A stretch of 64,000 bases of DNA from an uncultured candidatus Porisulfidus sp. (GTDB taxonomy: Bacteria > Pseudomonadota > Gammaproteobacteria > Poriferisulfidales > Oxydemutatoraceae), in assembly GCA_965215765.1 (NCBI GenBank), contig OZ244118.1:2415801-2479800 (forward strand), written 5' to 3'. Position numbers and translations under genes: made by a program. Below the pieces are notes generated by a model. The model saw only the letters and a list, made by a program, of their open reading frames with translations. It did no database searches and was not told the DNA's origin. Of this stretch, positions 5,903-61,039 are shown one piece after another; position 1 is the stretch's first letter, and the number at the start of each line of letters is the position of its first letter.

Positions 5903-7306
5903 GTGGATATAGTCGTTCAAGCTGTTTATTTTGTAACAGCCATTCTTTTTATTTACGGCCTGCGCCAGATGAGTTCGCCGGTGACCGCCAGGCGCGGCAT
6001 CATTTGGGCAGGAGCGGGCATGGTTGGTGCGGTGCTGATCACTTTCTTTTGGTCAGGGCTGGGTAATTTCATTCTGATAATAAGCGCCATACTGCTTGGT
6101 GGCGTACTTGCATGGATGTCTGGCAAACGCGTGCAAATGACTGATATGCCGCAAATGGTGGCATTGTACAACGGCATGGGTGGCGGTGCCGCAGCCTGTA
6201 TCGCAGCCCTTGAGTTGATGAAGGATGGATCGCTGATGTCATCGGCTGGTGCTGGCCATGGCTCGGGAGTTCTGACCTTGGCTCTGCTGGGCGGGCTCAT
6301 TGGAACAGTTTCTTTTTCCGGCTCCCTGATTGCCTTTGGGAAATTACAGGGTCTGATCAATAAAAGCTTTTCTTTTACGGGTCAGCACTACCTCAATTTC
6401 GCGTTGCTGGCCGGCTTGTTTATCGTTGGTTCCTACCTGGGCTTCGCGGATGCACCACACGGGTTCTTTATTTTCCTGTTCTTCATGGGCGCACTCGTGC
6501 TTGGTGTCACCATGACCATGCCGATCGGCGGTGCTGACATGCCCGTGGTGATCTCTCTTTACAATGCCTTGACCGGGTTGGCAGTCGCTTTTGAAGGCTT
6601 CGTGATAGACAACGCAGCGATGATCGTGGCCGGAACTGTTGTCGGTTCAGCAGGAACCTTGTTGACCCAATTGATGGCGAAAGCAATGAACCGCTCACTG
6701 GCAAATGTCTTGTTTTCCGGCTTCGGCACTACGGTTCAAGACGACGGCGATGAAGTTGATGGCGTCATGAGAGCCTTGGAGCCGAACGACGCTGCTGCCG
6801 CGATGGCCTATGCAAACCAGGTCATTATCGTGCCCGGCTACGGGATGGCAGTAGCGCAGGCGCAGCATAAAATTTGGGAATTTTCCCAACTGCTTGAAGA
6901 GGCAGGCGTGGCGGTCAAGTTCGCCGTCCATCCAGTGGCAGGGCGAATGCCGGGACACATGAATGTACTCTTGGCCGAAGCCGGTGTGCCATACGACAAG
7001 ATCTTTGAACTGGAAGAGATCAACGCCGAATTTCCGCAAACAGACGTGGCTTTGGTTATCGGTGCCAACGACGTCGTAAATCCGGACGCCAGAAGCAAAA
7101 AGTCCAGCCCTATTTACGGCATGCCAATTCTGGACACCGATAAAGCAGGCACCTGTATTGTCATCAAGCGTGGCCAGGGAACTGGATTTTCGGGGATTCA
7201 GAACCGCCTGTTCAGCCTGGAGAACACGCGCATGCTCTATGGCGACGGAAAGAAAGTTGCCAATGACTTGATTGCGCAGATCAAACAATTGCAGCTGACT
7301 GACTGA
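5903..7306 (+). CDS. pntB: NAD(P) transhydrogenase subunit beta (dII membrane domain plus dIII NADP(H)-binding domain), GTG start
   Basis: 467 aa. N-terminal multi-TM region and C-terminal soluble domain 'VIIVPGYGMAVAQAQHKI...GANDVVNP' typical of PntB. Confidence 0.9.
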   Translation: MDIVVQAVYFVTAILFIYGLRQMSSPVTARRGIIWAGAGMVGAVLITFFWSGLGNFILIISAILLGGVLAWMSGKRVQMTDMPQMVALYNGMGGGAAACIAALELMKDGSLMSSAGAGHGSGVLTLALLGGLIGTVSFSGSLIAFGKLQGLINKSFSFTGQHYLNFALLAGLFIVGSYLGFADAPHGFFIFLFFMGALVLGVTMTMPIGGADMPVVISLYNALTGLAVAFEGFVIDNAAMIVAGTVVGSAGTLLTQLMAKAMNRSLANVLFSGFGTTVQDDGDEVDGVMRALEPNDAAAAMAYANQVIIVPGYGMAVAQAQHKIWEFSQLLEEAGVAVKFAVHPVAGRMPGHMNVLLAEAGVPYDKIFELEEINAEFPQTDVALVIGANDVVNPDARSKKSSPIYGMPILDTDKAGTCIVIKRGQGTGFSGIQNRLFSLENTRMLYGDGKKVANDLIAQIKQLQLTD

Positions 7307-7340
7307 ACTGACCGATACTCCCGACTAAAAGCCAGTCTCT

Positions 7341-7877
7341 ATGAAACTCCTTCTCCTTGACCGTGACGGGGTCATCAACGAAGACGTTGGATATGTGAAA
7401 TCGGCATCTGAATGGCATGCACTACCTGGCAGTCTTGAAGCGATAGCACGCCTTAGCCAGAACGGCTGGTTTGTAACATTGGTATCCAACCAATCTGCCT
7501 TGGGCAGGAAAATCCTTTCTTTGGACAATCTGGCAGAAATCCAGGGAAAATTGCAAGCAGAGTCAGCTGCAACGGGAGCAGCCATAGCCGGACTGTCCTT
7601 TTGTCCCCACCTGCCAGACGCCGGTTGCGAGTGCCGCAAACCAGCCCCCGGGATGCTTCTGAACATTGCCAAAAGGCTGGATGTCAACCTGGCAGAAGTC
7701 CCATTCATTGGTGACAAGCTAAGCGACATACTTGCTGCCAAAGCTGCAGGGGCGCGCCCTATGCTGGTTTTGACAGGGCAGGGAAAGGAGGATGTAAAGA
7801 ACCCCGGCTTCCCAAGTGATGTCCCTGTTTACCAGGATTTGGCAGAAGCCACGGACCAACTGTTATCCGCTCACTAG
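7341..7877 (+). CDS. gmhB: D-glycero-beta-D-manno-heptose-1,7-bisphosphate 7-phosphatase (HAD-IIIA, histidinol-phosphatase-like)
   Basis: 178 aa. 'LLLDRDGVIN' HAD motif I, 'CxHxxxxxCxCRKP' Zn-binding motif ('CPHLPDAGCECRKPAPGM'), 'IGDKLSDILAAKAAGA' motif III. Confidence 0.85.
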   Translation: MKLLLLDRDGVINEDVGYVKSASEWHALPGSLEAIARLSQNGWFVTLVSNQSALGRKILSLDNLAEIQGKLQAESAATGAAIAGLSFCPHLPDAGCECRKPAPGMLLNIAKRLDVNLAEVPFIGDKLSDILAAKAAGARPMLVLTGQGKEDVKNPGFPSDVPVYQDLAEATDQLLSAH

Positions 7878-8930
7878 ACCCGTTTCCAGGATCCAAAAAC
7901 GTAGCCTGGCTCAGCAATTGCGTGCTGCGCGCTGTACCCGAAGACGCGTATCAAGCTATGTGTTTTTTGCGGGTACCCTGGCCGGACGAAATCTGGCAGA
8001 AATCCAGGGAAAATTGCAAGCAGAGTCAGCCGCAACGGGAGCAGCCATAGCCGGACTGTCCTTTTGTCCCCACCTGCCAGACGCCGGTTGCGAGTGCCGC
8101 AAACCAGCCCCCGGGATGCTTCTGAACATTGCCAAAAGGCTGGATATCGACCTGGCAGAAGTCCCATTCATTGGTGACAAGCTAAGCGACATACTTGCTG
8201 CCAAAGCTGCAGGGGCGCGCCCTATGCTGGTTTTGACAGGACAGGGAAAGGAGGATGTAAAGAACCCCGGCTTCCCAAGTGATGTCCCTGTTTACCAGGA
8301 TTTGGCAGAAGCCGCGGACCAACTGTTATCCGCTCACTAGACCCGTTTCCAGGATCCAAAAAACGTAGCCTGGCTCAGCAATTGCGTGCTGCGCGCTGTA
8401 CCCGAAGACGCGTATCAAGCTATGTGTTTTTTGCGGGTACCCTGGCCGGACGAAATCTGGCAGAAATCCAGGGAAAACTGCAAGCAGAGTCAGCCGCAAC
8501 GGGAGCAGCCATAGCCGGACTGTCCTTTTGCCCTCACCTTCCAGACGCCGGTTGCGAGTGCCGCAAACCAGCCCCCGGGATGCTTCTGAACATTGCCAAA
8601 AGGCTGGATATTGACCTGGCAGAAGTCCCATTCATTGGTGACAAGCTAAGCGACATACTTGCTGCCAAAGCTGCAGGGGCGCGCCCCATGCTGGTTTTGA
8701 CAGGACAGGGAAAGGAGAATGTAAAGAACCCCGGCTTCCCAAGTGATGTCCCTGTTTACCAGGATTTGGCAGAAGCCGCAGTCCAACTGTTATCCGCTCA
8801 CTAGACCCGTTTCCAGGATCCAAAAAACGTAGCCTGGCTCAGCAATTGCGTATCGCATGCTGTACCCGGAAACGCATATCAAGCTATGCGTTTTTGCGGG
8901 TACCCTGGTCGGAAGAAATCTGACAGGCGG
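7531..8930 (+). repeat. Tandem triplication, about 462-bp unit (copies 7531-7993, 7994-8454, 8455-8915, then about 15 bp of a fourth). Each copy carries the 3' 115 codons of gmhB plus about 120 bp of downstream sequence.
   Basis: Near-identical blocks read directly. ORFs 7816..8340 and 8382..8804 are read-through frames that re-enter the duplicated GmhB C-terminal frame ('...AEIQGKLQAESAATGAAIAGLSFCPHLPDAGCECRKP...LLSAH'). Confidence 0.9.
8870..8895 (+). terminator. Candidate intrinsic terminator: 9-bp stem aaacgcata / tatgcgttt, 6-nt loop, followed by a T-run
   Basis: Read directly in the last (most distal) repeat copy. The corresponding hairpin is imperfect in copies 1-3. Confidence 0.35.
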
Positions 8931-9300
8931 GAGTATCGGCGCAAGTTATGCCGGAGCTCGGTGTCAGGAGCAGTTCGGGCGGGTGGTCTGGTCGCAGACA
9001 ACCAAGGCTAGGTGACTGACAGTTACACAACAACTTCTGTGACCGGGAAAGGTCTGGTCGCGGGTCTTGTGGCAAACAATCAGGGTGCCGTCAGCTGTAG
9101 GGGCGCGGTAGGGTCAGTGTCCGGAGCCGGACAGCCCGGAAGTTTTGCCGGCAGCAGTCCGAGTCCGGGAGGCATTGCCGACAGCTACGCGTAGGTTGCC
9201 TCGCGTCAATGGTGGCAGTGTGCCTTTTGTGGAAGATGACGTCGGGCAGGCATCAGACTTTCTGCCGAGTCTCGTGCCTGACGGCACCCGGTTGACTACC
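8925..9300 (+). pseudogene. Decayed fragment (about 370 bp, multiple stops) of a giant GLUG-repeat gene. Plus-strand orientation, fused to the end of the gmhB repeat array.
   Basis: Translation 'VTGKGLVAGLVANNQGAVS.RGAVGSVSGAGQPGSFAGSSPSPGGIADSYA*' aligns to the 'FVTGEGLVAGLVADNQGTVSRSYAAGSVSGAGQPGSFAGSSSGGIADSYAAALPR..' segment of the paralogs at 24.4-64 kb. The downstream portion is degenerate. Confidence 0.75.
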
Positions 9301-9310
9301 TGTTGACGGG

Positions 9311-9814
9311 CTAAACGTCTCCTGCGGCGGCTCTGGCGAGCTCCGATTCGATGGCTCTCAGGGCTGCGTTATAAGTATCAATGCTTTTACCGCCAGCCTT
9401 GGTAACGTCTTTCACCATTCCCCAAGCGTGGTTCAGTCCCTTTTGCACGGCGGAATTCTCACCGACAGGCATCTCGCTTTTAATCGCTTCTTCCAGACCG
9501 TGCAATGTTTTTTCTCTTTCCGCAGTTTGCGCATCGGGAAAAATCAGATCTTTGACAAAGGAGATTATCCAATCAACCGGCCCTTGCGGCCCTCTGTCAA
9601 TGCGTGGGTTTCCGTTTTTATCGATGAACAACTCGGGCGCAAACCCGCTTCCTGACCTTTCGAGTTTTCCGATTGCTTCCCGAAAGCCGGCAAGCCCTCT
9701 CTTCTGTGAATAATCATATCTGGCGGTGTTCACGCTTGGTGTCGCGTGTCTGGCTCCTATTACCGGGTGTGGCATTGTGCTTCTCCTTTCGTCCGTGGTT
9801 GCATCACCGCTCAA
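9311..9814 (-). CDS. Hypothetical protein (167 aa; possible start at MPHPVIG, coordinate 9776). No recognisable family.
   Basis: Open frame co-oriented with the downstream aldo/keto reductase. No motif recognised from sequence alone. Confidence 0.4.
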   Translation of the reverse strand: MSGDATTDERRSTMPHPVIGARHATPSVNTARYDYSQKRGLAGFREAIGKLERSGSGFAPELFIDKNGNPRIDRGPQGPVDWIISFVKDLIFPDAQTAEREKTLHGLEEAIKSEMPVGENSAVQKGLNHAWGMVKDVTKAGGKSIDTYNAALRAIESELARAAAGDV

Positions 9815-9883
9815 TCTCGCTTAATTGTCAGGTTGCTGATTGAGCAAAACAATAGGGTTCTATTGTACCACTGACTCGCCTGT

Positions 9884-10921
9884 TTACGGAGCCGGGAAGG
9901 GGAAACTCGTGTGTACGGCCTCTATTTTTTCAATCAGTTCCTGATCCAGCTTTATGTCTGCGGTTCCGATATTGTCTCGCAGCTGTTCCATTGTCGTCGC
10001 CCCAACAATGGTTGAAGTCAAAAACTTCCTTCCATTGACCCACGCAAGCGCCAGTTGGGCGGGGCTCAAGCCTGCGTCTTTGGCAATGCGCACATATTGC
10101 TCGGTGGCCGCTATGGAGTTGGCACCCAAATAACGCTGAAAATGAGGGTGAAGAGTCAGCCTCGCATCCTTTGGTTTCTGGTCTTGTAAGTACTTGCCGG
10201 TCAGCACGCCAAAGCCCAGAGGTGAGTAAGCCAGCAAACCGGTTTTCTCACGATGCGCAAATTCCGCCAAGCCCACCTCAAAGGAGCGGTTCAGGAGGTT
10301 GTATGGATTTTGCACGCTCACAACACGAGGCCACCCCCGTTGTTCAGAAAGTCTCAGGTAGCTTGCAACCCCCCAGGCGGTTTCATTGGCTATTCCGATA
10401 TGTCGAACCTTCCCTTGAGATACTGCGTCTGCCAAGGCTTCCAGCGTTTCTTCCAATGGGTCAGCTTGCTCGTCTTCACTGTATGGATAGCACAGGGTGC
10501 CAAAAAAATTGGATGTGCGTGCCGGCCAGTGCACCTGATACAGATCAACATATTCCGTCCCCAGACGTTCGAGGCTTTTTTCAAGAGCCAGGCTCACTTG
10601 CTCTTTTGTCAGACGCGGACCTCCGCGTACAAAAGTCGTCCAGGTGGATGGTCCTGAGACTTTGGTTGCCAGGCAAACCTCGTTCCTTGTGCCGCGCTTC
10701 TTCAGCCATCTGCCGATAATCCTTTCGGTGTCTCCGTATGTGCCTGCCGACATCGGAACAGGGTATATTTCTGCAGTATCAAAGAAATTCACTCCCTGAG
10801 TCAGGGCATAATCCATTTGTTCGAAAGCCTCGCTTTCGGAATTTTGTTCACCCCAAGTCATTGTGCCAAGGCAAATCAGACTAAGTTGCAAGTCCGTATC
10901 GCCTAATTTTCTGTATTCCAA
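9884..10921 (-). CDS. NADP(H)-dependent aldo/keto reductase, Tas/YajO-like
   Basis: 345 aa. 'LGDTDLQLSLICLGTMTWGE...FDTAEIYP' AKR N-terminal signature and 'AYSPLGFGVLTGKY'. Confidence 0.85.
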   Translation of the reverse strand: MEYRKLGDTDLQLSLICLGTMTWGEQNSESEAFEQMDYALTQGVNFFDTAEIYPVPMSAGTYGDTERIIGRWLKKRGTRNEVCLATKVSGPSTWTTFVRGGPRLTKEQVSLALEKSLERLGTEYVDLYQVHWPARTSNFFGTLCYPYSEDEQADPLEETLEALADAVSQGKVRHIGIANETAWGVASYLRLSEQRGWPRVVSVQNPYNLLNRSFEVGLAEFAHREKTGLLAYSPLGFGVLTGKYLQDQKPKDARLTLHPHFQRYLGANSIAATEQYVRIAKDAGLSPAQLALAWVNGRKFLTSTIVGATTMEQLRDNIGTADIKLDQELIEKIEAVHTSFPFPAP

Positions 10922-13779: not shown

Positions 13780-14586
13780 TCAGTCGAGCAGTCCTGTTTC
13801 AGGCGAAGAACTGCTGGCAAAGCGACGCTTTGTCATGCGTCCGGCCAGGTAGGCAGCACGTCCTGCCTGTACTGCCAGATTCATGGCATGTGCCATAGTT
13901 ACAGGTTTCCTGGCCATCGCGATTGCGGTGTTCATCAACACGCCGTCGCAGCCAAGTTCCATCGCAATGGCAGCGTCCGAAGCAGTTCCAACTCCGGCAT
14001 CCACAATTACCGGCACCCGCGCGTTCTCTACAATGCTGCGAATATTGCCCGGATTGCGGATACCCTGCCCTGAGCCTATCGGTGCGGCCAAGGGCATCAC
14101 AGCCGCGCAGCCGATTTCTTCAAATCGTGTCGCCATAACGGGATCGTCGTTGGTGTACACCATCACCTTGAAGTCTTTCCGGATCAGCAGTTCTGCTGCT
14201 TCCAGCGTCTGTATGACATCCGGAAACAAGGTTTTTTGATCAGCGAGCACCTCCAGCTTGACAAAAGAATGTCCGAGCAATTCACGCGCGAGCAAGCACA
14301 CACGAACTGCGCTTTCTGCCGTGTAGCAGCCAGCCGTGTTCGGAAGAATGAACCAGCGATCCGGGCCCAGTGTTGACAACAGATCCGGTTCTTTTGTGGC
14401 ATGTTCCAAATTCATTCGGCGCAAGGCGACGGTCACAATCTCGGCTCCGGAAGCCAGCACTGCCGCTTTGCTTTCTTCCAGATCCCGGTATTTTCCGGTT
14501 CCAACCAAAAGACGCGAAGTGAACGATTTATCGGCAATAAGCAGTTTTTCAGTCATCGGCAATTCCCGCTGTTTTCCATGTCTCAT
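13780..14586 (-). CDS. thiG: Thiazole synthase ThiG. Alternative, likelier start [12 protein letters not shown] at 14556.
   Basis: '[19 protein letters not shown]' and '...[14 protein letters not shown]' ThiG family signatures. Immediately downstream of thiS. Confidence 0.9.
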
Positions 14587-15329
14587 CCCCGTTAACCGCC
14601 ACCAATAGCCCGAACAATTTCAACCGCATCGCCATCTTCGAGAATACATTGATCGTATTCATCGCACGGTACAATCTTGCGGTTCACTCTTCCAGATCCC
14701 GGTATTTTCCGGTTCCAGCCAAAAGGCGCGAAGTGAACGATTTGTCGGCAATAAGCAGTTTTTCAGTCATCGGCAATTCCCGCTGTTTTCCATGTCTCAT
14801 CCCCGCTAACCGCCGCCAATAGCCCGAACAATTTCAACCGCATCGCCATCTTTGAGAATGCATTGATCGTATTCATCGCACGGTACAATCTCGCGGTTCA
14901 CTCTTCCAGATCCCGGTATTTTCCGGTTCCAGCCAAAAGACGCGAAGTGAACGATTTATCGGCAATAAGCAGTTTTTCAGTCATCGGCAATTCCCGCTGT
15001 TTTCCATGTCTCATCCCCGCTAACCGCCACCAATAGCCCGAACAATTTCAACCGCATCGCCATCTTCGAGAATGCATTGATCGTATTCATCGCACGGCAC
15101 AATCTCGCGGTTCACTCTTCCAGATCCCGGTATTTTCCGGTTCCAGCCAAAAGGCGTGAAGCAAACGATTTGTCGGCAATAAGCAGTTTTTCAGCCATCG
15201 GCAATTCCCGCTGTTTTCCATGTCTCATCCCCGCTAACCGCCACCAATAGCCCGAACAATTTCAACCGAATCGCCATCTTCGAGAATGCATTGATCGTAT
15301 TCATCGCACGGCACAATCTCGCGGTTCAC
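14474..15329 (-). repeat. Four tandem 214-bp units. Each spans the thiS 3' end (last ~35 codons incl. ...VRAIGGG*), the 20-bp intergenic spacer and the thiG 5' end (first ~33 codons). The outermost copies are the genuine gene ends.
   Basis: Marker 'tcatcggcaattcccgctgttttccatgtctcatcccc' recurs at 14553, 14767, 14981 and 15195. Homology begins at 14474 inside thiG and ends at 15329 inside thiS. Confidence 0.9.
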
Positions 15330-15434
15330 TTCGGCGGCAAATAATTGCCCGTCAAGATCCAGCTTGCCAAGTAATCCCCCGAGGGTCAGCCCTTGGGGAT
15401 ATTCGTTCTGATGCCCGTTTAACTTGAGATTCAT
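15234..15434 (-). CDS. thiS: Sulfur-carrier protein ThiS (66 aa, C-terminal GG)
   Basis: 'MNLKLNGHQNEYPQGLTLGGLLGKLDL...[14 protein letters not shown]' with the typical ThiS length and GlyGly terminus. The longer ORF-track frame is rejected. Confidence 0.85.
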   Translation of the reverse strand: MNLKLNGHQNEYPQGLTLGGLLGKLDLDGQLFAAEVNREIVPCDEYDQCILEDGDSVEIVRAIGGG

Positions 15435-16739: not shown

Positions 16740-17426
16740 ACTTTTTGCCTGCTACGCCACGGCTCGGAGCCAGCTCGGAGCCATCCCGGAGTCGTTCCGG
16801 TGAAGCGCGCTGCCTGTCGCAACATCCGGCTCAGCAGACTGGATTGCTGCGGCGTTTGCACGAGGCTAATCCTCAGAAGCAACCCGGCTTGAGCTTTTTG
16901 CCTGCTGTATACCGGCTTCGGAGCCATCTTGGAGCCGTTCCGGTGAAACGCGCTGCCTGTCGCAACATCCGGCTCAGCAGACTGGATTGCTGCGGCGTTT
17001 GCACGGCTAATCCTCAGAAGCAACCCGGCTTGAGCTTTTTGCCTGCTGCGCCACGGCTCGGAGCCATCTTGGAGCCGTTCCGGTGAAACGCGCTGCCTGT
17101 CGCAACATCCGGCTCAGCAGACTGGATTGCTGCGGCACTTGCACGGCTAATCCCCAGAAGCAACCCGGCTTGAGCTTTTTGCCTGCTGCGCCACGGCTCG
17201 GAACCAGCTCGGAGCCATCTCGGAGCCAGCTCGGAGCCAGCTCGGAGTCGTTCCGGTGAAACGCGCTGCCTGTCGCAGCATCTGGCTCAGCAGACTGGGT
17301 TGCTGCGGCGTTTGCGCGGCTAATCCTCAGAAGCAACCCTGCTTGAGCTTTTTGCCTGCTGCGCCACGGCTCGGAGCCATCTCGGAGTCGTTCCGGTGAA
17401 GCGCGCTGCCTGTCGCAACATCTGGC
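16672..17426. repeat. Tandem array of about 140-150-bp units (about 5 copies, one 181 bp with internal gagccagctcg sub-repeats). Each repeats the last ~22 codons and stop of thiO. The array fills the whole gap between convergent thiO and the ATPase gene.
   Basis: 'catccggctcagcagactggattgctgcggcgtttgcacggctaatcctcagaagcaacccggcttga' recurs at 16672 (genuine), 16823, 16966, 17106 and about 17287, with a truncated copy at about 17418. Confidence 0.88.
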
Positions 17427-35406: not shown

Positions 35407-38400
35407 TCAGCGAATCATACCGCCCAGGAATACCCTCAGGCGCAATTTCTTGACGTGATGCGGACCTGGTCTCGGCGTTGTCGGGATCTCGGGATCCCAG
35501 TTGATAAATTGACTCACTCCTGGCAGCTCAGCCACGCTGTCCCGAGGGAATGCCCGGACTTCGTACGCGACACCGCCCTGCAACCCCGTAAATTCCATCC
35601 TGACGGCTCCCCCGGGCGTCGGCATCGCAACAGACTGTTCCTCTATCAGTTCCCCGTATGAAAGCAGTTGTACCCGATACCCCAAGCCGAGCAATATTCC
35701 GTCAACCGGGGCTCCGAAATCAGCATGATCCGCAGTGCGTCCATAGCCATCATTCCCCGAATATTGCAAGTGTACCTGCACACGACCATTCGCCTTGTGC
35801 ATCAGCTGCATGGCCAATGTTCCCTCAAGAACGTCGAGCAAGGTAAATGCTGCTGTGCCCATCGCGCCCGTTCCGGCGCGGTTGACTGCCCGGAGCGAAT
35901 AGCGTATCTGCTCTCCTCCTGCGTGCTTCTTGCGCAGCTGCACCACGACATGGCCTGACAACACATAAGAAGTGGCGGTTCCCGAGACGGGGTGGCTTTT
36001 TCCGTCCACAAAAAGCTGGTAGCTGTCTATCGTCGCCCCGTTGCTGCTCGCCGCTTCCCAACTCAGGTTCACCCGATCTGCGGACTTCCACCTGGCTCGC
36101 AAGCCCGAAGGTCTGCCAGGCACCGCTATGGTGCTGAACGCGCTTCTGTTTTCGGATGCCTGGGCGGGCTCCCCGGTGCCAGCCCGGTTGCGTGCATAGA
36201 CCTGTAACGAATAGCTTCTCTTCGGCAGCAAGTCGGTGATCTCAATCTCGGTGTCAAAAGCACCTGCCGAGAAAAAGGTCTCGGTGCTGCGTCCTCCAGC
36301 ACTCACCACCACCACGTAGCCAAAACCGGAGCCTGCAACGCGATCAGAGGAAGACGCAAGCGCATCACCCGCCAGGGGAGCGCAATCGTCATGTCCCATG
36401 ATCATCAACACCAGGCGCGCAGTGGTTTGCCCGGGCACCAGCTCCGTTATCGTCGTCGCGCCCGGAAGACCGGGCAAATAGAAATGACCGACCGCCGGAT
36501 AGCCAGCGACATCTCCGCGCACAGCGCGAAGACGGTACGGGTGGGGGCAAGCCCCCTGGCTGTTTTTCCGAAACTCAGCCAGAAAATCTCCGTTGAAGTC
36601 AAAAGTCGGTGCTGTGACTTCCCGTATTGTTCCTGCCAGTTCAAGTTCGTACGAATCAACCGCTGGACTTCCCGCCGCCCAAGTAAAGCGCAGATGATCC
36701 GGAGATTCCCAGCTCACCGCCAAATCAACCGGTGCGGCAGGAATGTCGACAAGCGCGCGCAGCAAGGGCAACGTGCGGGTATTGCCAAAATGCCAGGCTC
36801 CCGGTTCCCAGCCGGCATAAGTCGTGGCACCTGCGCATCTTTGCCCCGCCGCAGTCGGGCAACGCAGCTGGGTCAGAGTGCGAGGTAAAGCACCTTCCGT
36901 CAAGCCACTGCCCACCAAAGATGCCTGTGCAGACACGGGTGCGTAACTGCGATCAATCACCGCATCCGGAGCAGAATAACCCGCCAGACTCCCGGTGCTG
37001 CCCGATTCCCCAACAACCCTGTTCGCTGCATAGCTGTCCTGTATGCGGCGGATATTGTTTCCGACCAGTCCCCCGATAGAGAAATGACCCCGCACCTCAC
37101 CGAGTGCATAGCTCGCATGGACAGAACCCGAGTTGATGCCCACCAGTCCGCCAACACGGCTATCTCCGCTGACCGACACGTCGGCATAGCTGTAGGCAAT
37201 GGTGCTTCCGCTGTAGCCGACCAGACCGCCGGCGCGCGAGCCGTCCACAGCGATGGCCGAACCTGTCGCGTAACAGTGCAAAATCGTGCTTCCCTGGCTA
37301 TAGCCAACCAGACCGCCAGCATTGTCCCGCCCTTCACCCGTGACGCGCACCGCCGCATCGGCACTGCTGTGCAAAATAGCGGCTCCCAGAGCCAGACCGG
37401 CCAGACCACCGGCAGACTCAAGCGCGCTTACTTGCGAAGCCCTCACCGTGCTGCCCACGACCCGACCTTTTGCTTTCACATAACCGACCAGACCGCCGAC
37501 GTATCTGCCCCCGCCAACCTCGGCACTGGCACCACTGTTGATCAACAATCCTCCGTTGCCACCCGCCAGCCCGCCAATGTTGAGCCCGGCTCTGTTGCCG
37601 GAAATCTGTGCGGACTTCACAACGCTGTTCATGACGGTTCCGTCGTTAAAGCCGACCAAGGCTCCGACGCTGTTTTTTCCTTTTACCCACGCATCAACGA
37701 GCACCACATCTTTGACGATCCCGTCTATTGCAACTCTGGAAAACAGGCCAACCGTATCCGTCTCCGGGCGGTTAATGTGCAGAGCAGAGATTTGCCGCCC
37801 TGCCCCGTCGAAAGTGCCTGAAAAAGGCTCTATCGGATGAAAACCGGCGCCGCCTGACCACTCCCGACTCGACCGGGCGTCAATATCTGCCACCTGCACA
37901 TAGTGAGCGTGCAGATCAGAGCGCACATCCTGCAGTTGGCACAACGTGCCAATTTGCCACGGGTTGTCGCCGCTGCCGTCACCCTGCGCACTTTTCAGAC
38001 CCTTGCCGGCGCATCCCGGAAAGCGGGTCACCGACCCGGATCGTTGACGGCGATCCGGTGCCCACCGTGTTATGGGCGAAGGCTTCCAGCCGATATGCAA
38101 AGGCACTTTTAAGCTCCGTAAATTCCATTGTGACCGGGCTCAGAGGACTCCCCAGCGGAATGTCGCGTTCTTCAACCAGCTCCCCGGACGCATACAGATG
38201 TATCCGGTAAGCCAGGTGCAAAGCCATGGCTTCCGCTGACGTTGCGTAATCAGCGTCACCCGGTTTGCGACCGTAGCCGTCATTGGCCGGGGCTGTAAAA
38301 CTGAGTCTCAGCGTGGAGACCCCCGGCACCACGTGCATATCAGCCGGAGAACCAGGAACATCCAGCAGGCGCACGGAAACACGGGCAGCTTCGCCAACAC

Positions 38401-41400
38401 CATAAAGGTTGTAGCCACGAACCGTTAAAAAGAGCGTATTCCCGCCTTCATGACGGGCGCGCAGCTTCTGCAACCAGTCCGATCCTCCCACGTAGTACAA
38501 CGATGCGGTTTCCTCAGCAGCGATCGATGGAGCCTCAATCCGGTAAGCGATCAGTTCTTTGGTGTGAAGCGGAGGCTCCCAACGCAGCAACAAGGCAGAC
38601 GGGGATTTCCACTGCGCGAGCAGGCGCAAGGGTTTGCCAGGAGTCTCAAAGCCCTGCAGAACCGGCAGCGTCCTGTAATCTCCGAAGGACCAGATCTCGG
38701 CACTCCAGCCTGAGTATGTTGACCTTCCCGCACACGCCAGGCCGGGGGCGGTGGGACAACGCAGTTGCTGTAGCGTCCGCAAGGAGCCTGATCCCTGCCC
38801 GGCGTCATCTGCCACAAAAGGCATGCCGCCACCATTGGGGCCATTGACGCGAGGCAACGCTGCTGCGTAGCTGTCGGTAATGCCTTCCGAACTGCTGCCG
38901 GCAAAACTTCCGGACTGTCCGGCTCCGGACACCGAGCCTGCCGCATAGCTGCGGCTGACGGTGCCCTGATTGTTTGCCACAAGACCCGCGACCAGACCTT
39001 CCCCGGTCACAAAAGCTGTTGTGTAACTGTCAGTCACCGAGCCCCGGTTGTCTGCGACCAGACCACCCGCCCGAACTGCTCCTGACACCGAGCCTCCGGC
39101 ATAGCTTGTATCAATACTCCCGGTTACCAGATTTCTTCCGACCAGGCCACCCGCTACTTGGCCTCCCGGCTCTGCCGTCAGCTGTGCCGCGCTGCCGCTG
39201 ATCATGCCTGCGTTGATACCGACGAGTCCTCCCGCCACTTGCCCGCCAAAAAGTGAGCCCGTCACCCCGCTGTTCACGATCCTTCCTCCCTCGTTCCTGC
39301 CCGCCAGAGCACCCACGTTGACGCTTCCCCAAAGCTGTGCGTTCACCAGCACGACCTGCTGCAATAACCCGCCCCGAAGCTGCGCAAACATGCCGACATC
39401 TTCCAGCGCCTCAGAGCGCACCCTTAAATGGAAAATCTGATGACCGGCGCCATCAAGGGAACCGGAAAAATCAGCAATCGGCGCAAAGCCTTTTCCGGCT
39501 CGCCAGTCCCGGGATGGACCTGCCTCAATATCGCTTGCCAGCCGGTAGTGGGCTGCAGGAACAGAGCGAATGTCCTGCAATTGGCACAGCGTGGCAATCT
39601 GCCAGGGATTGTCCTCGCTGCCCGAACCGCCTGCCGATGCCAGGGCTTCCCCGTCGCACTGCCAGGGACGGGTAAATGCCGACAGGAAAAATGACGACCC
39701 TTCTCCAACATTGTTATAGGGCGTCGCCTCCACTTCATAGCGGCTATTGCTTGCCAGACCCGAAAATTCCACAACTGCGGATGTTTCGCCAGCTGTGTGC
39801 GCACGCTCCCGCTCCTGCACCAGTTCTCCCCCGGCGTACAACCGTACCCGGTAACCCAAACCTGAAGAAACCCCGACACTCGTATATCCGTAAGCCGGGT
39901 CTTCCGGTGATTGGCCGTAGCCGTCGTCAGCCGGAGCCATAAGAAACACCTGCAGCGAAAATGCCTGCGCCGATGCCCGAACGACCGTCAATTTGCCTGG
40001 GGCTCTCAGCAGTCTGATCACAACCGTCGTCGCTTCGCTCATGCCATGGCGGTTATATCCACGCACGCTGACTTGCAAGGTACTGTCCCTATATTCGGAA
40101 CGGAGGTTTTTCACCAGGTGCCTGCCGAGCGTAAAAGATGCGGATCCCGTTTCCAGGGAACGCCCTGCCACCTCCACCCAATAGCCGGCGTTCAGACTTC
40201 CTGTTTTCGCGGCTGTCCAGTTCAGTTCCAGATCACCTTCCAGGTTCCATCGCGCCTGCAGGCGTGAAGGGGGAGCAGGTGGCACTGCTTGCAGGGCGCG
40301 ATGGGTCGGGAGCGTCTGCTCGTCCCCGAAATACCAGATTTTGGTGCTCCAGCCGGAGTAACTGATTGCTCCCTGGCACGTGTCTCCCGGCAAAAGAGGA
40401 CACTGCAATTGCGCCAGCGTGCGGGAAAAATTGTTTTCTGTGGCGTCCTCTTCCCCGCTGCCCACGAGTTCCAGCGCGCTGCTGCCGACACCCGGCTCCA
40501 AGGCGTAATTCGCAACCATATCGGTGCCCACGGATTGCCCCACCAGCATGCCCGCCTGATTGTTCCCGTTAACCAGACCTGTCGCATAACTGTCCTCAAT
40601 ACTGATGTTTCTGTTGCGGAAGTGACCACTGTTTCCCGCCAGGCCGCCTACCTGCACATTCCCGCTGACCGAACCAGTCGCATAACTGTCGTCAATCGAG
40701 CCTCGACTGGTTCTTCCCACCAGCCCGCCTGCCTGCACATTCCCGCTGACCGCTCCGGTCGCATGGCTTCTGAGGATTGACCCTGAGTTGAGACCCACCA
40801 GACCTCCCACACGGTCCCCCGCGCCGATAACCATGCTGTCCGAGTAGCTGTCAACTATGGAATAGGGATGATCGTGCTGACCCACCAACCCGCCCACATC
40901 CTCTACCCCATTGACCGCTCCTGCCGAATAAGAGCCGCTTATAAAGCCATGGTTATAACCCGCCAGCCCGCCTACATATTGATGCCCGCTTACCGTTGAC
41001 TGCGCGTGGCAGTGGTAGATCGGAGCCACATTGAACCCCACCAGCCCACCAACACTGTTTGCGCCGCTCACACTTCCTCTCGCGTGCGAACTGCGTATCC
41101 TCGCGCCCCAGGCATTCCTGCCCACCAGTCCGCCTATCATGTTGCCGTGCCTCTGGAAATCAACCGTTCCGACAACGGTAGACTCCGAATGGCTGAGCTT
41201 GATTAAGCCATGATTCTCACCTGCCACTCCTCCCACACGATTCCGCCCGCCTATCAACCCAGTCACCGTGCTGCCCTTGATGCTTCCATTTGCCGCAACG
41301 CGTCCTGCCAGGGCTCCTGTTGCATTTCTGCCCCGCACCGTAACATTCACGAGTGCCAGCCTTTGCAGAGCACCACCGTTGAGCTTCCCGAACAGCCCGA

Positions 41401-44400
41401 CATGGTCTGCTTGCCCAGGATTGATCAAAAGACTCAGAATACTGTGACCACTCCCGTCCAGAGAGCCGGAAAAAGATTCAATCGGTGGAAAACCCTTTCC
41501 GTCTCGCCACTCGTGGCTTTGCTTCGCGTCTATATCGTTTGCCACCCGATAATCAGCTGCCGTGTCGTAACGTATTTCATGCAACTGGCAAAGTGTGCCG
41601 ATCTGCCAGGGGTCATCCTCGCTGCCAGAGCCCGCTGCCGTTATCACCGCTGCCCATGGACACGCGCCAACGTAGGTGAAAACCGGTGCTATCACCGTTG
41701 TTGAGCCTGCGCCCGTCTTGTTTCTGGCAAACATCCTGACTTCGTACCTGGAACCACCTTCCAGGCCTGAAAACTCCACTACGGTCGTGCTTGACCATTC
41801 CTGCTGTGTCACACGCCGCACTTCTTTCAACAGGCCTTTTGAAAACAGTTGCACGTGGTATGCGAGATCCAGCGCAACTCCGCCTGCCGGCTCCCCGTAC
41901 ACGTTGCTGCCCGGTGCGCGTCCGTAGCCATCATCAGCGGCTCCGGTAATGGTGACCTGTATTGTTGACAGCCCCGAAGCTGTCTGAGTCCCCACCTCCC
42001 CCGGAACTTTCATCAAATGGAAACTTCCCGACGCTGCATCTCCCGCAACGCCTCCTTTTACGCCGCGTATGGAATAGTGGATTTCACTGCCGCTGACGTA
42101 ATGCTCACGCAATTCAGCCATTAATGAGCCGCCAAGCGCGAAACGGGTTCCCTCGGTGTCTCGAATGATTCCGCCCACCTCCACCTCAAAAGAATTCACG
42201 GCAACTCCTTGATGCCACCCCCACTGCAGCGTCAATCCACCTCTCGAATTCCAGTTTGCACGGACTGCATGCGGGGCAACGGGAACATCCGTAACTGTCC
42301 GGAGCACGGGCAGCATGCGAGAGTTCCCGAAATACCAAATCCTCGTATCCCAACCCAGATACACACCAGCTGCCCGACAAAGATTGACGGGCAACATCGA
42401 GCACTTCATCTGCTCCACGGTGCGCAAATCACTGCCCTGTACTGCACCGTTATCCTCGCCCAGGAGGCTGTCCCCGTCGCCCAGCTTGCTGGCATAACTG
42501 CGGTCTATCGTGCCACCATTGACTCCGACCAGCCTGCCCGGCAAATCAGTTCCGCCTACAGCACCCGTGCTATAGGCACTTCTGACCAAGCCGCTGTTTT
42601 CGCCGACCAGTCCACCTGTCTGACTGTCTCCGGTCACTACGCCTCGTGCGTAACTGTTACCAATGCTTCCCCAGTTTTCGCCGACCAGACCCCCAACCTG
42701 GTTCTTTCCAGTCACACGTGCGTTCACGTTTGTATGGCTGTTCACGATGCTGGCGTTGCCCCCGTTCACACCCACCAGACCACCTGCCTGACTGCCTCCG
42801 GACACCGGGCCTTGTGCGTAGCTGTCACTGATGCTTCCCTTGTTATCGCCGACCAGACCACCTGCCTGACTGCCTCCGGACACCAGGCCTTGTGCGTAGC
42901 TGTCACTGATGCTTCCCTTGTTATCGCCCACCAGACCCCCAACCTGGTTCTTTCCAGTCACACGTACTCGCCCGTTTGTATAGCTATTCACGATCCTGGC
43001 GTTGCCCTCGCTCACACCCACCAGACCACCCACCTGACTGTCTCCGGACACTACGCTTTGCGCGTGGCTGTTGCTGATGCTTCCCCAGTTTTCGCCGACC
43101 AGACCCCCGACCTGGTTCTTTCCACGTACTTGCCCCTTGCTGTGGCTACTCACGATGCTGGCGTTTTTCAGGTTCATACCTACCAGACCGCCTACCTGAC
43201 TGTCTCCGGACACCGTGCTCCACGTGTAGCTGTCACTGATGCTTCCCCAGTTTTCGCCGACCAGACCCCCGACCTTGTTCTTTCCACGTACTTGCCTAAG
43301 TGCATGGCTACTCACGATCCTGGCTTCGTTCACACCCACCAAGCCCCCAATCCCGGGGGCTGCTCCGACAACATAGCTCTCCGTGTAGCTGCCACTGATG
43401 GTGCCGCCAAGGTGCCAACCCACCAGACCACCCACGTAGCCCCTCCCTGAGGCATGAGTCCCGGTCACATCTCCAGTCGCATCGCTGGAAGTGACCGAAC
43501 CCCTGTTTTTGCCCACCAGACCTCCGACTTGATTGCCTCCTGTTACTGCACCCCTCGCATGACTGCCCACAATCGTGCCACCGTCATTCTGACCCACCAG
43601 ACCGCCGGAAACCCATGTGTTGCGAGAATTCTTCCCAACCCTTACCGTCGACGTGCTGTTACGAATGACACCGCCCCGATTCAGGCCAACCAGCCCACCG
43701 ATGGTTTTGCCCCCGTCAACCTTGCCATCAACCATGCTGCCCTCAATCGTCCCCCGATCGTTCAGCCCAACCAGAGAACCGACATTCACTCCGCCGTTCG
43801 TCGAAAAATTCACCAGCTTCACGCGCTTCAGCAAGCCACCCTGCAACTCGCCAAACAACCCTGTGTTCTCGAATTCTCCGGCTGTTGCACTGACCTTCAA
43901 ATTGGAAATTTTGTAACCGTTGCCATCATAGGTGCCAGAAAAACCCTTGATCGGTGCAAAACCGTCTTTCCAGCCATGCGTCATCGTCGTTGCGTCTATA
44001 TCCTTGATCTGGACGTAGTGCGACTGAGGCGATGCTTCCATGTCGCGCAAATGGCACAGGTTTTCTACCTGGTAGGGATCAGTTTCAGTTCCGGAACCTG
44101 CCATGGCCTGCGAACTTATAGCGCACGCCTGATCTGGATCCATGTAGGGAAATTGGCTGCCGTTGTAATAGGTGTCTCCGTAATTGAGAATGTTGAAGGC
44201 TCTTTCGTCCGTGTAAATCCCTCCCATCCCATAATAAAATGAGGTGCAATCCCGACCCTCCTCGCCCGGATGGGCATTTAGAACCCCTATCATCATGCCG
44301 GTCTTTTTATAAAATGCGGATGAGCCGGACGCTCCAAACGTAGGAGAGATGCCCTTATACGTTAAATCCAAAAACCAGCAAATCGCTCCTTCGCAGAAAG

Positions 44401-45664
44401 GCGGGCCGCCTCTCTTACCGCCGACGCTCCCGAGTGAATCGGTCGCTGCCACTGCACTTTCAAACTCACCCAGCTGCTGAGGCTTGGAGCCAGAGTGGTG
44501 TACGGAGAAACCACTGAAAGTATCGGTAGTGCGGGTCATCCACTCCAGCAATTTATAATCTCCGTGCCCGATAAACCGTCCAGTAAGACGCACAATCGCC
44601 CAATCTCCACCCTCATCTCCCGGCACTCTTGCCTTTCCTGCCACGTATCTCACACCAAAGGCGTATGAATCACCAGGAAGACCGATGAAGAATGGCAAAA
44701 ACGGTTTGTCCACAGTGTTAGCGTACGCTTCAGGGAAAAGGTGAAACGCTGTCAGAATGTAGGGGGCTCCATCACCTGACTTGTTCTTTATAAAACTCCC
44801 AGTCCCGCAGCCAGCATCTCCGCCAAAATAGCGGCACATGCTTACGACACCTTTGGTCACATCCCGCACGTAAGCCGGGCTGTCGCTGTTTACATAGTTA
44901 TTGTTACCGGAAACAAATTCGTTGATGTTTGCGCGCTCGCAACTGTCGGCTTGTCTCCGAGGTGCCAGGTTCCTGACTCCCTCTCCGTATAAAACTCCGT
45001 TGTTATCCTTAAATGTGTGGCTCACTTTTTCGACCGAAAAAGGAAAATCGCCTGGCTCCAGGTGGTAACTGTCCGGAACCCAAAACTCTATGACAACGGT
45101 ATCACCAGACACCGGGAACGCCACAAAGCTGCCATCATTACGTGACAAGCCACGTCCCGTGTACTCTACGACCTCTTCATTGCTGTCTCCGGCGAAGGCA
45201 TAGACATTCACCGACATGCCCGGGTCGAGGGGAAACCCAGAAAAATGCAACCACAGCTGCAGGGCAGACGGAGAGCGAATCTGCGCCTGCCAGACATCAA
45301 GACCGTCTTCCTGTTTGACCAGTGCCCAGTTGGAACGCCTTAAATGGACGTCCCGGGCAAAGCTGGTGTAGTTGATCGTTGTCTCACGGAGCAGTTCACG
45401 AATTTGCTCTTGTTCCCGGGTACTGAAAGGCCCCAAGTCCAGTTGCTGTGCGCGGGCAGGATACAGAGTTCGAGTGGCTTCCCGGGCATTCCTCCCCTCC
45501 GAAAAGGGATAGGACGCATAGCCTTGATCTGCCAGAGATTCCTGATCCTGGCCGAAAACAAGAGAGCTCGACGTGATGATAGATACACCCACGAACAGCC
45601 ACTTCAGCCAACCATGGCTGCCGGAAATCTGCGTATCCGAAAATCTGAAACCTGCTTCTTTCAT
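35407..45664 (-). pseudogene. Giant GLUG/S1-protease paralog 2 (about 3,419 codons), interrupted by a +1 frameshift near 38044-38048 (ORF 37979..45664 of 2561 aa, then ORF 35407..38106 of 899 aa). Could be an authentic pseudogene, or a sequencing/assembly error in a repeat.
   Basis: The two ORFs overlap by 128 nt. Paralog 1 has 'gggtcaccgtccggatcg' where paralog 2 has 'gggtcaccgacccggatcg'. The protein is collinear with paralog 1 on both sides of the break ('...STIR' | 'VTRFPGCAGKGLKSAQGDG'). Confidence 0.65.
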
Positions 45665-47305
45665 TGTGAGTGCTTACGAGCCATGCGGGCAGAGAAAAGA
45701 GAGCCTGGCCATCCTGAGACATAAAATTCCCTGCACCACATTCGCTATCTGTTCTTCATGGCTACGCACTGAGCGATCCTCTGGCTCTGACCTTCACTCA
45801 CTCTCTGATGTCCCAGTACGGCTGTACGCGGTCAGGATACAGAGTTCGAGTGGCTTCCCGGGCATTCCTCCCCTCCGAAAAGGGATAGGACGCATAGCCT
45901 TGTTCTGCCAGAGACTCCTGATCCTGGCCGAAAACGAGTGAGCTTGACGTGATGATGGTTACACCCACGAGTAGCCACTTCCGCCAACCATGGCTGCCGG
46001 AAATCTGTGTATCCGGAAATCTGAAATCTGCTTTTTTCATTGTGAATGCCTACGAGCCATGCAGGCGGAGAAAAGAGAGCCTGACCACCCTGAGACATAA
46101 AATTCCCTGCACCACATTCGCTATCTGTTCTCCATGGCTGACGCACTGAGCGATCCTCTGGCTCTGACCTTCACTCACTCTCTGATGTCCCAGCACGGCT
46201 GTACGCAGGCAGGATACAGAGTTCGAGTGACTTCCCGGGCATTCCTCCCCTCAAAAAAGGGATGGGACGCGAAGCCTTGTTCTGCCAGAGATTCCTGATC
46301 TTGGCCGACAGCAAACGCGCTTGACGTGATGATGGTTACACCCACGAGCAGCCACTTCAGCCAACCATGGCTGCCGGAAATCTGCGCGTCCGGAAATCTG
46401 AAACCTGCTTCCTTCATTGTGAATGCCTACGAGCCATGCGGGCGGAGAAAAGAGAGCCTGACCACCCTGAGACATAAAATTCCCTGCACCACATTCGCTA
46501 TCTGTTCTCCATGGCTGACGCACTGAGCGATCCTCTGGCTCTGACCTTCACTCACTCTCTGATGTCCCAGCACGGCTGTACGCAGGCAGGATACAGAGTT
46601 CGAGTGGCTTCCGGAACATTCCCCCCCTCAAAAAAGGGATGGGACGCGAAGCCTTGTTCTGCCAGAGATTCCTGATCCTGGCCGAAAACGAGTGAGCTTG
46701 ACGTGACGATGGATACACCCACGAGTAGCCACTTCCGCCAACCATGGCTGCCGGAAATCTGTGTATCCGGAAATCTGAAATCTGCTTTTTTCATTGTGAA
46801 TGCCTACGAGCCATGCAGGCGGAGAAAAGAGAGCCTGACCACCCTGAGACATAAAATTCCCTGCACCACATTCGCTATCTGTTCTCCATGGCTGACGCAC
46901 TGAGCGATCCTCTGGCTCTGACCTTCACTCACTCTCTGATGTCCCAGCACGGCTGTACGCAGGCAGGATACAGAGTTCGAGTGACTTCCCGGGCATTCCT
47001 CCCCTCAAAAAAGGGATGGGACGCGAAGCCTTGTTCTGCCAGAGATTCCTGATCCTGGCCGAAAATGAGTGAGCTTGACGTGATGATGGATACACCCACG
47101 AGTAGCCACTTCCGCCAACCATGGCTGCCGGAAATCTGTGTATCCGGAAATCTGAAATCTGCTTTTTTCATTGTGAATGCCTACGAGCCATGCAGGCGGA
47201 GAAAAGAGAGCCTGACCACCCTGAGACATAAAATTCCTTGCACCACATTCGCTATCTGTTCTCCATGGCTGACGCACTGAGCGATCCTCTGGCTCTGACC
47301 TTCAC
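45665..47305 (-). repeat. 4.3 tandem copies of a 377-bp unit that duplicates the giant-gene 5' leader (about 150 bp) plus start codon and first ~68 codons. Each copy ends in an 80-aa signal-peptide ORF (MKKADFRFPDTQISGSHGW...).
   Basis: Start codons of the leader-ORFs at 46040, 46417, 46794 and 47171 (period 377). Breakpoint just after codons '...RTLYPA'. Confidence 0.9.
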
Positions 47306-47719
47306 TCACTCTCTGATGTCCCAGCACGGCTGTACGCGCCGAAAAATCACTAGTGGGTCAATTGTACAAAATAACGCCCATTTCAGCAAATTATTATAAG
47401 AAGATACCGGCCTCATCCGACCGGAAAACCCCGAAAACAGTACCAAGGTGTGCAGTCTTATTTGTGAGCTTTTTGGTCTCCAAGGGGGTGAATCAGTGGC
47501 AATAGTCGGCACTGCAACTTCCTGTTTTTAACCACGAAAAACGTGAAAGTTGGTATTTGCAATTCGTATGATTTCAGTTTTGTGACAGCTTCCAAAGTTC
47601 ACCAAAAGCCCCAATTCAAGGCCTGTTGTTTTAAGACAATTCAACAGTTGTGCTTCATGCTCATCAACAATGTTTGTCATGGCAGATATAGTCAGGCTTA
47701 TGGACTTGCTTTAAAGGTT

Positions 47720-60700: not shown

Positions 60701-61039
60701 TCCCAGCACGGCTGTACGCGCCGAAAAATCACTTAGTGGGTTAATTGTACAAAATAACGCCCAATCCGGCAAATTATTATTAAGAAGATACCGACCCCAT
60801 CCGACCGGAAAACCCCGAAAACAGTGCCAAGGCGTACTGTCTTATTTGTGGGCTTTTTGGTCTACAAGGGGTTGAATCAGTGGCAATAGTCGGCACTGCG
60901 ACTTCCTGTTTTTAACCGCGAAAAACGTGAAAGTTGGTATTTGCAATTCGTATGATTTCAGTTTTGTGACAGCTTCCAAAGTTCACCAAAAGCCCCAATT
61001 CAAGACCTGTTGTTTTAAGACAATTCAACAGTTGTGCTT

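Follow-up and report, generated by a model that had tools for sequence, protein, structure and literature searches.

The DNA analysed here is a 64,000-nucleotide (nt) stretch of contig OZ244118.1 from an uncultured candidatus Porisulfidus sp., hereafter the window, in which a tandem array built from the 3′ part of gmhB runs into a decayed fragment of a giant GLUG gene, hereafter the remnant. The intact gmhB (7341..7877, plus strand) encodes a D-glycero-beta-D-manno-heptose 1,7-bisphosphate 7-phosphatase of 178 amino acids (aa), which carries HAD domains (Pfam), scores 193.2 bits against the NCBIfam equivalog NF006506 (cut-off 178) and has orthologues of 94% and 89% identity in relatives. The array (7527..8926, plus strand) consists of three full 464-bp units and a 10-nt microhomology, and its first unit takes in the final 117 codons of gmhB. 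The remnant occupies 8896..9268 on the plus strand. To its right an open reading frame (ORF) of 167 aa, ORF167 (9311..9814, minus strand), is convergent to gmhB and forms the right flank of the insertion site.

Four related loci were compared with the window. L008 is the gmhB locus of OZ243039.1, a 1.92-Mb metagenome-assembled genome (MAG) of Candidatus Oxydemutatoraceae (Chromatiales), and its flanks are 86-90% identical to the window. L009, from a more distant relative, is 80% identical with the same gene order. L010 and L011 come from an independent sample (ERZ25071281), are 94-96% identical to the window and represent what we call the sister strain. The literature on the family Ca. Oxydemutatoraceae offered nothing beyond a single incidental mention.

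A decayed fragment of a giant GLUG gene

The remnant is a 373-bp ectopic copy, decayed and without a start codon, of giant-gene codons ~2254-2377. A blastn search run without the low-complexity filter aligned window 8896/8905-9259/9268 (plus strand) with 28142-27791 of paralog P1 at 86.3% identity (E = 2e-118), with 39154-38785 of P2 at 84.6% (E = 8e-117) and with 52168-51790 of P3 at 83.4% (E = 1e-113). The homologous segments, all on the minus strand, span 27782..28151 in P1 (ORF 24414-34910; 86.4% identity), 38776..39154 in P2 (ORFs 37979-45664 and 35407-38106; 86.9%) and 51790..52168 in P3 (ORFs 52125-58670 and 48422-52405; 86.9%). These giant ORFs are of the GLUG/fibronectin-III type (Pfam Glug, 6.7e-70). 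Their remaining GLUG repeats give blastn matches to the remnant of at most 72 nt, with E-values of 5e-5 or weaker, and at the protein level identity is 78% for module 3 and 31-50% for other GLUG blocks. Because the other repeats match only briefly or weakly, the comparison identifies the match as position-specific and not as a product of composition or codon bias. The preliminary description of this DNA had left room for a similarity due to GC-rich codon bias, and E-values of 1e-113 to 1e-118 at one module position speak against it.

P1 has four module-end W.FG motifs (aa 1198, 1860, 2405 and 3037). The remnant corresponds to residues 2254-2377 of 3498, ends 28 residues before the third motif and is the tail of the GLUG run in the third of the four modules, as the preliminary description had proposed. 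Within window positions 1-24000 it is the sole giant-gene fragment (blastn and tblastn), with no other copy of the remnant outside the giant genes. It was also correctly described as inverted and some 15 kb from a giant gene: 15.5 kb separate the array from the closest giant gene, which ends at 24414, and 18.9 kb from the closest homologous site, and the neighbouring giant genes have the opposite orientation.

Where several stop codons had been reported earlier, the remnant has two in-frame TAG codons and two frameshifts. The lesions are a 1-nt deletion between 8955 and 8956, an in-frame TAG at 9009-9011 (TCG to TAG), the 6-bp sequence AGTCCG doubled in tandem at 9156-9167, and a 2-nt deletion with an in-frame TAG at 9192-9194; the longest ORF left is no more than 60 aa. 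Private substitutions number 23 (23/373, 6.2%) and fall on codon positions 1:2:3 as 7:10:6, against 6:8:12 for the 26 sites at which the two genomes' intact paralog sets show fixed differences, both counts being small samples. Such a spread is as expected without coding constraint, and the substitutions and lesions indicate that the remnant is free of such constraint and is decaying neutrally. It is a dead pseudogene fragment without function. Like other bacterial gene remnants it is cut at both ends, carries frameshifts, stops and evenly spread substitutions, and sits harmlessly in a spacer between convergent genes; unlike them it is an ectopic internal piece, not a gene decayed in situ.

Junctions of the gmhB array

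Tandem Repeats Finder (TRF) gives the array a period of 464, 3.0 copies and 97% matches, with its end at 8926. By unit alignment the units lie at 7527-7990, 7991-8454 and 8455-8918 (plus strand), as direct head-to-tail repeats. A unit runs through gmhB codons 63-178 and the stop codon, takes in the 3′ hairpin and T-run, and carries ~21 nt from the beginning of the remnant. The units diverge from each other by 1.3-5% at specific sites, with 6 private changes in unit 1, none in unit 2 and ~22 in unit 3. The later gmhB copies lack the N-terminal third and match only positions 65-179 of NF006506 (109.6 bits, below the cut-off). The array is flanked by gmhB coding sequence on its left and by the remnant on its right.

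The left endpoint of the primary duplication is AATCTGGCAG (7527..7536, plus strand) in gmhB, encoding Asn-Leu-Ala, and the right endpoint is AATCTGACAG (8917..8926, plus strand) within the remnant. Together they form the microhomology AATCTG[G/A]CAG, with 9/10 matches. The flanks on both sides of the two parental endpoints are unrelated, and the short identity appears once per junction. At the outer array edges we found no repeat longer than this 10-mer and no insertion sequence (IS), rrn or repetitive extragenic palindromic (REP) repeats. P1 reads AAATCTGACAGG at the place of the right endpoint, and the 10-mer at 8917-8926 is therefore giant-gene sequence.

This boundary had been described as a fourth copy breaking off after ~15 bp into a ~370-bp remnant. 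The size of the remnant was close to the 373 bp found here, but the supposed fourth copy is the 10-nt microhomology AATCTGACAG. Nor does the remnant begin where the array stops. In a four-way alignment the giant-gene homology starts within unit 3 at GCGGGT (8896), preceding the shared 10-mer by 21 nt, and continues unbroken across the unit end, an overlap of remnant and array of 31 nt. The remnant's first base directly follows the T-run of the gmhB hairpin.

The order of events can be read from the internal junctions. Junction 1 (7969..7999, plus strand) consists of the remnant-derived GCGGGTACCCTGGCCGGACGA, then AATCTGGCAG, then AAATCC, and junction 2 (8433..8463, plus strand) has the same sequence. 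The original gmhB reads ...TTTGGAC, then AATCTGGCAG (7527-7536), then AAATCC, and the last junction reads GCGGGTACCCTGGTCGGAAGA, then AATCTGACAG, then GCGGGAG, continuing into the remnant. At the place of the unit tail the giant genes read GCGGGTGGCCTGGTCGGAAGAAATCTG, with P1 continuing ACAGGCGGGAG. A remnant-free relative has unrelated bases, TCTTATTGGAGGGATC, after the hairpin, and therefore the unit tails cannot be original gmhB 3′ sequence. Every internal junction, in the window as in L010 and L011, carries the remnant's first bases. Since the internal junctions hold the first ~21 nt of the remnant together with the 10-mer, the left junction of the remnant predates the first duplication. 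These junctions indicate that the remnant came first and that the 464-bp duplication was seeded on it later. Moreover, the internal junctions of both strains share a derived GGACGA, whereas the terminal remnant and all paralogs have GGAAGA; the first junction thus gained this change ahead of both the amplification and the divergence of the strains.

The position of the array edge follows from the remnant having supplied one of the two microhomology endpoints. Because its left junction is itself part of the repeated unit, the insertion and the duplication are not the same event but sequential ones. The suggestion that the abutment hints at one error-prone process behind both features is not supported as it stands, the internal junctions of the window and of the sister strain already carrying remnant bases. 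Both events plausibly belong to a single broad class, illegitimate recombination at short homologies or template switching.

In the sister strain the array has a period of 463, with 4.5 copies in L011. Four sister-strain junctions are decayed variants of the window junction sequence. Three retain the remnant's A in AATCTGACAG, and one, GCGGGTGGACTGGTCGGACGAAATCTGACAG, matches the giant-gene consensus at 29/31 positions and retains GCGGGTGG as the giant genes do. In L011 the last unit is cut short at unit position ~230, where AGCTGCAGGGGCGCG followed by GTAGGG joins it to remnant position 9093. This is a deletion between AGCTGCAGGGGCGCG of gmhB (8669-8683) and AGCTGTAGGGGCGCG of the remnant (9093-9107), which share the short match AGCTG[C/T]AGGGGCGCG, and it removes half a unit together with the first half of the remnant. 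The surviving second half is 95.2% identical to that of the window, as expected for vertical inheritance. The structure of array and remnant is real and heritable. Two metagenome scans for further strains, with a remnant-specific 26-mer and an internal-junction 30-mer, gave no match.

Around this deletion we made two further observations. Private changes of C to T at 9096 and of CTA to GGG at 9101-9103 make remnant 9093-9107 match the gmhB sequence AGCTGCAGGGGCGCG at 14/15 positions, and that 15-mer is the sister-strain deletion junction (L011 8285-8299). At 8330-8430 of L011 the remnant copy has extra insertions of 7, 7 and 27 nt compared with the window; they resemble local tandem duplications, similar to the AGTCCG duplication described above.

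The array also leaves its mark on public gene calls. The ORF at 7819-8340 is identical to the public protein P0003. P0004, a 169-aa ORF of ERZ25071281 present on L010/L011, has the N-terminus FAGGLVGRNLTEIQGKL, a GLUG motif fused in frame to GmhB. P0003 and P0004 are chimeric ORFs, which start out of frame in the preceding unit or in remnant-derived bases, run on into the truncated gmhB frame and carry HAD-domain hits. They call for caution in annotation, as they would be mis-annotated as phosphatases.

The hairpin 3′ of gmhB and its T-run (8862..8903, plus strand; core arms 8870-8878 and 8885-8893, T-run 8891-8895) have a minimum free energy of -25.9 kcal/mol (z = -2.98). The hairpin is found in the inverted-repeat listing too and is also present in L008. 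A consensus terminator scan did not call it, and across 7200-9900 there was no Rfam family and no promoter or terminator consensus site above chance.

Arrival of the remnant and rival explanations

A 22-mer invariant in all four window copies was found in one genome among 185,579 species representatives, that of OZ243039.1. It occurs there in seven copies in four regions, and these are intact giant genes because all lie within open frames of at least 3.5 kb. In L008 only ~20 nt separate the hairpin (10629, window 8894) from the ORF167-side sequence (10651, window 9258), and a second, duplicated copy of that junction (L008 13578-13760) equally lacks the remnant. L009 has in its place an unalignable 357-bp spacer without giant-gene similarity, and tblastn with the giant protein found no match in L008 or L009. 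The remnant has no counterpart at the same site in these two relatives, whose flanks are 90% and 80% identical.

Paralog identity within a genome is 92.7-95.8% in the window and 93.5-98.6% in the relative, and between genomes 84-88%. The remnant, at 86.4%, 86.9% and 86.9% to P1, P2 and P3, is 82.6-84.5% identical to the relative's copies. Of the 26 sites that are fixed differently in the two paralog sets, it agrees with the window at 19 and with the relative at 7, and it branches at the base of P1-P3. The simplest reading of these figures is that the remnant was copied after the split from the OZ243039.1 lineage and before the last common ancestor, or the homogenisation, of the window paralogs.

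The paralog alignment that had been proposed for finding the donor confirmed the homology and named no donor. P1, P2 and P3 were each rejected as donor, being equidistant from the remnant, with which they privately share 0, 1 and 1 states; their longest stretches of identity to it are all alike, at 47-48 nt. The sister strain's sample supplied two more paralog copies, likewise rejected because at 76% (on a low-coverage contig) and 84.6% they come no closer. The donor comparison took P1-P3, the module-3 region of a fourth paralog at the window end lying beyond the window.

The right junction zone (9256..9265, plus strand), GACTTTCTGC, resembles both the giant gene (GGCTTCTTGC) and the relative's empty site (GGCTTCCTGC). 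The overlap reads ATCAGGCTTCTTGCGGA in the giant gene, CGATGGCTTCCTGCTGA in the empty site and ATCAGACTTTCTGCCGA in the window, with GGCTTC.TGC in common. On the left only ~GCG.G/GGG is common to the giant gene and the empty site of this diverged relative. The Pfam lists of the window, the sister strain and the relatives hold no transposase or integrase near the remnant, and there is no terminal inverted repeat, flanking direct repeat or target-site duplication at 8896/9268. IS-mediated transposition is not supported on these grounds. Of the earlier proposal of past recombination or transposition to an ectopic site, the ectopic copying stands, given the remnant's absence from two relatives, but the transposition does not.

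Taken together, we think it probable that the remnant was inserted, decayed and then seeded the microhomology duplication. A 373-bp internal piece of a giant GLUG gene would have been copied once into the spacer between gmhB and ORF167, after the split from the OZ243039.1 lineage, landing directly after the gmhB hairpin and its T-run. The comparisons show the event itself. As short imperfect junction microhomology goes together with a lack of transposon features, its mechanism would most likely have been a templated insertion, made when a replication fork switched template or during microhomology-mediated repair; alternatively, a DNA fragment may have been captured at a break. Lying behind a hairpin in the spacer of two convergent genes, the site would be compatible with a stalled fork and with neutrality. 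The copy, having no function, then decayed neutrally, as its lesions attest. Next, slipped or illegitimate recombination between AATCTGGCAG (gmhB codon 63) and AATCTGACAG (remnant nt 22-31), 464 bp apart, would have duplicated the intervening stretch in tandem without damage to the first gmhB copy. The place of this step in the order is set by the junctions, and their structure suggests its enzymology, which would be replication slippage or template switching independent of RecA. Unequal homologous exchange between units would afterwards have led to 3 copies here and 4.5 in the sister strain, where a second short gmhB/remnant match would have mediated the deletion. The only demonstrable activity of the remnant is that of a passive substrate offering chance microhomologies.

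Several points weigh against this history. Template switching, break repair with a captured fragment and uptake of foreign DNA are indistinguishable here. The empty site is taken from a relative with flanks 10-14% diverged, which makes the junction microhomologies (~5 nt on the left, ~10 nt and imperfect on the right) approximate. The L009 spacer, being unalignable, shows absence only, and a slight chance remains of loss in the relative rather than gain here. Outside the window the source genome may hold a paralog that would make a far closer donor; the copy would then be younger. Finally, locally templated substitutions in the remnant were sought and rejected: in a permutation test that kept the substitution positions and randomised the new bases, P was 0.06 for summed match length and 0.14 for matches of at least 10 nt, and an ancestralised remnant scored the same as the real one.

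Some individual changes have a templated look nonetheless. At 8902-8903 a private change of GG to AC lengthens the stem of the gmhB hairpin, which then reaches into the remnant (8862-8872 / 8893-8903), and changes at 9086-9087 give a perfect 12-nt inverted repeat (9083-9094 / 9278-9289, 183 nt apart). Both may be quasi-palindrome corrections, without statistical support. The clustered changes at 9096 and 9101-9103 look like a templated patch, and the permutation test again gave no significant signal.

Among the alternatives, the one that fares least badly, though we hold it improbable, is that a full-length giant gene once stood between gmhB and ORF167 and was almost wholly deleted. Giant paralogs are numerous and scattered, with at least 3-4 in the window and 7 at four regions in the relative, and microhomology-mediated deletions do occur at the gmhB locus. 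However, the piece is internal (codons 2254-2377 of 3498), which requires two separate deletions, each of which would have to end within a few bases of the original flanks. On the left these flanks are undamaged as far as the hairpin, on the right as far as the ORF167-side unit, and neither relative has any trace of such a gene at the site. An internal piece between intact flanks would be hard to produce by deletion of a full-length gene and easy to produce by templated insertion or capture.

Scarcely better placed, and if anything a shade less probable, is a single complex event, in which one multi-switch replication accident produced both the insertion and the gmhB duplication. Remnant and array do overlap physically, and both have microhomology-type junctions. 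Multi-switch events are known, including an amplicon with direct and inverted parts (PMC1428787), and gene conversion among units could mask their age. Against this, each unit tail reproduces an identical hairpin/GCGGG left junction, which must either have existed beforehand or have been made by a repeated switch, and the internal junctions share the derived A-to-C change that the terminal remnant lacks. Moreover, the private divergence of the remnant, 6.2% (23/373), exceeds about half of the largest unit-unit difference (~22/464).

A functional element, either a silent donor cassette for giant-gene conversion or the source of a regulatory RNA that shares sequence identity with those genes, is very unlikely. 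Silent cassettes for gene conversion of surface-protein genes include Neisseria pilS, Borrelia vls and the Anaplasma msp2 pseudogenes. The remnant is like them a promoterless partial copy of a repetitive surface-protein gene near full-length paralogs, its identity to nearby expressed-type genes is 83-87%, and read-through from ORF167 would give an RNA antisense to giant mRNAs. It differs from them in being single, disabled and partly deleted in the sister strain, where half of it is gone, and in having no conversion tracts (private states 0/1/1; equal 47-48-nt runs). The neutral decay (7:10:6, frameshifts, stops), and the lack of an Rfam match and of any promoter-like site above chance likewise argue against a function. 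As one copy only, without mosaic tracts, it was placed outside the class of silent donor cassettes.

A mis-join or a collapsed or expanded repeat is least credible of all: these are MAG-type long-read assemblies and two giant paralogs have frameshifts that could be read errors, but the units differ by 1.3-5% at specific sites, and two contigs of another sample, 4-6% diverged, show these junction types with another number of copies and retain the remnant's second half.

Known systems, other arrays and wider meaning

The preferred history of insertion, decay and later duplication has counterparts among described events. Duplications in Escherichia coli that are bordered by 4-15 bp of homology have been attributed to long-distance template switching (PMC1428787), and current tools classify bacterial duplications by such junction features (bioRxiv 10.64898/2026.05.22.727201). 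The gmhB array resembles the RecA-independent, template-switch type of duplication and amplification described for E. coli lac (Slack et al. 2006, PMC1428787) in its direct head-to-tail repeats, in a short-homology junction at which a 10-nt (9/10) match joins two otherwise unrelated sequences, in the lack of IS, rrn or REP ends and in a copy number that varies between strains (3 vs 4.5). It differs in a unit of 464 bp as opposed to 7-32 kb in lac, in its age, with units up to ~5% apart and common to two strains, and in having one endpoint in a pseudogene fragment. Nor is dosage selection evident, because only the C-terminal two-thirds of gmhB are repeated.

The remnant in turn is reminiscent of the templated insertions ascribed to fork stalling and template switching (FoSTeS) or microhomology-mediated break-induced replication (MMBIR), reviewed in PMC2583991: a short, inverted stretch from a locus tens of kb away, with a few bases of imperfect junction homology and ~20 nt of the target apparently replaced. 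It differs in that the mechanism would be deduced from an old, diverged event with no donor copy named, and a fragment captured at a break would leave an identical picture. The remnant and the array are thus known kinds of event, a neutral pseudogene fragment and a microhomology-mediated duplication.

The neighbouring products, PntAB, GmhB, ORF167, an aldo/keto reductase, SulP, a TrmB-like protein and ThiG/S, give the locus its setting. ORF167 has no Pfam or NCBIfam family match and is conserved, with 167 aa in L009 and 154 aa in L008/L010; in all four related loci it adjoins the aldo/keto reductase gene (167 or 154 aa). Window 9250-9347, ~100 bp that include the last codons of ORF167, is single-copy, and its counterpart in OZ243039.1 is an array of 106 bp × 7.7 (L008 13621-14778; also 10651-10864). 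OZ243039.1 further contains a segmental duplication with another partial gmhB tail (L008 13366-13632) and another SulP gene.

Long-period arrays are unusually dense in the window and, with the gmhB array, make up ~14% of it. The others lie at 314-908 (149 × 4), 14474-15330 (214 × 4), 16773-17387 (140 × 3.2/173 × 1.9), 45445-47337 (377 × 5), 47806-48349 (181 × 2.8), 58451-60720 (377 × 6) and 61188-61901 (181 × 2.9). Most window arrays have a near-integer copy number, and the outer junctions that were checked lie on 1-10-nt matches, such as GCTGT[G/A]CGC in both 377-bp arrays or a single nucleotide in the 214-bp array. The latter has 4.0 copies in the window as against 5.0 in L010, where the 140-bp arrays are longer too. 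TRF reported neither the 214-bp nor the 464-bp array in L008 or L009.

The 377-bp units (45445-47337 and 58451-60720, associated with minus-strand genes) repeat the start codon of a giant GLUG gene, an ORF of ~80 aa at its N-terminus and the upstream region. One such ORF reads MKEAGFRFPDAQISGSHGW.KWLLVGV... and is signal-peptide-like; examples lie at 58805-59047, 59182-59424, 59554-59799, 59934-60176 and 60311-60553. In front of each giant gene there are thus 4-5 additional copies of its 5′ end. Of the three complete giant paralogs, two are broken by a frameshift into overlapping ORFs (overlaps 37979-38106 and 52125-52405), and these frameshifts of P2 and P3 could be pseudogene lesions or long-read errors. 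The only uninterrupted giant ORF is that at 24414-34910 (3498 aa). The source contig measures 2,997,607 bp, compared with 1,918,571 and 2,000,500 bp for the closed-looking contigs of the two closest relatives.

In summary, the gmhB locus is a well-resolved natural case in which junk DNA created a microhomology that would have seeded a tandem duplication and, in the sister strain, a deletion. The order of events is readable from the junctions. By itself the case matters little. The density and strain polymorphism of the long-period arrays, some of which hold five or six repeats of each giant gene's start codon and signal peptide, are the only aspect that might repay further work. It is possible, though we put this forward tentatively and regard it as rather unlikely, that the remnant and the array both stem from a regime of short-homology template switching that is specific to this lineage and still active. 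If so, such a regime would litter the genome with arrays of 100-500-bp period around housekeeping genes and giant-gene 5′ ends, would leave their copy numbers variable between strains, and may contribute to the larger genome of this organism (~3.0 Mb vs 1.9-2.0 Mb).

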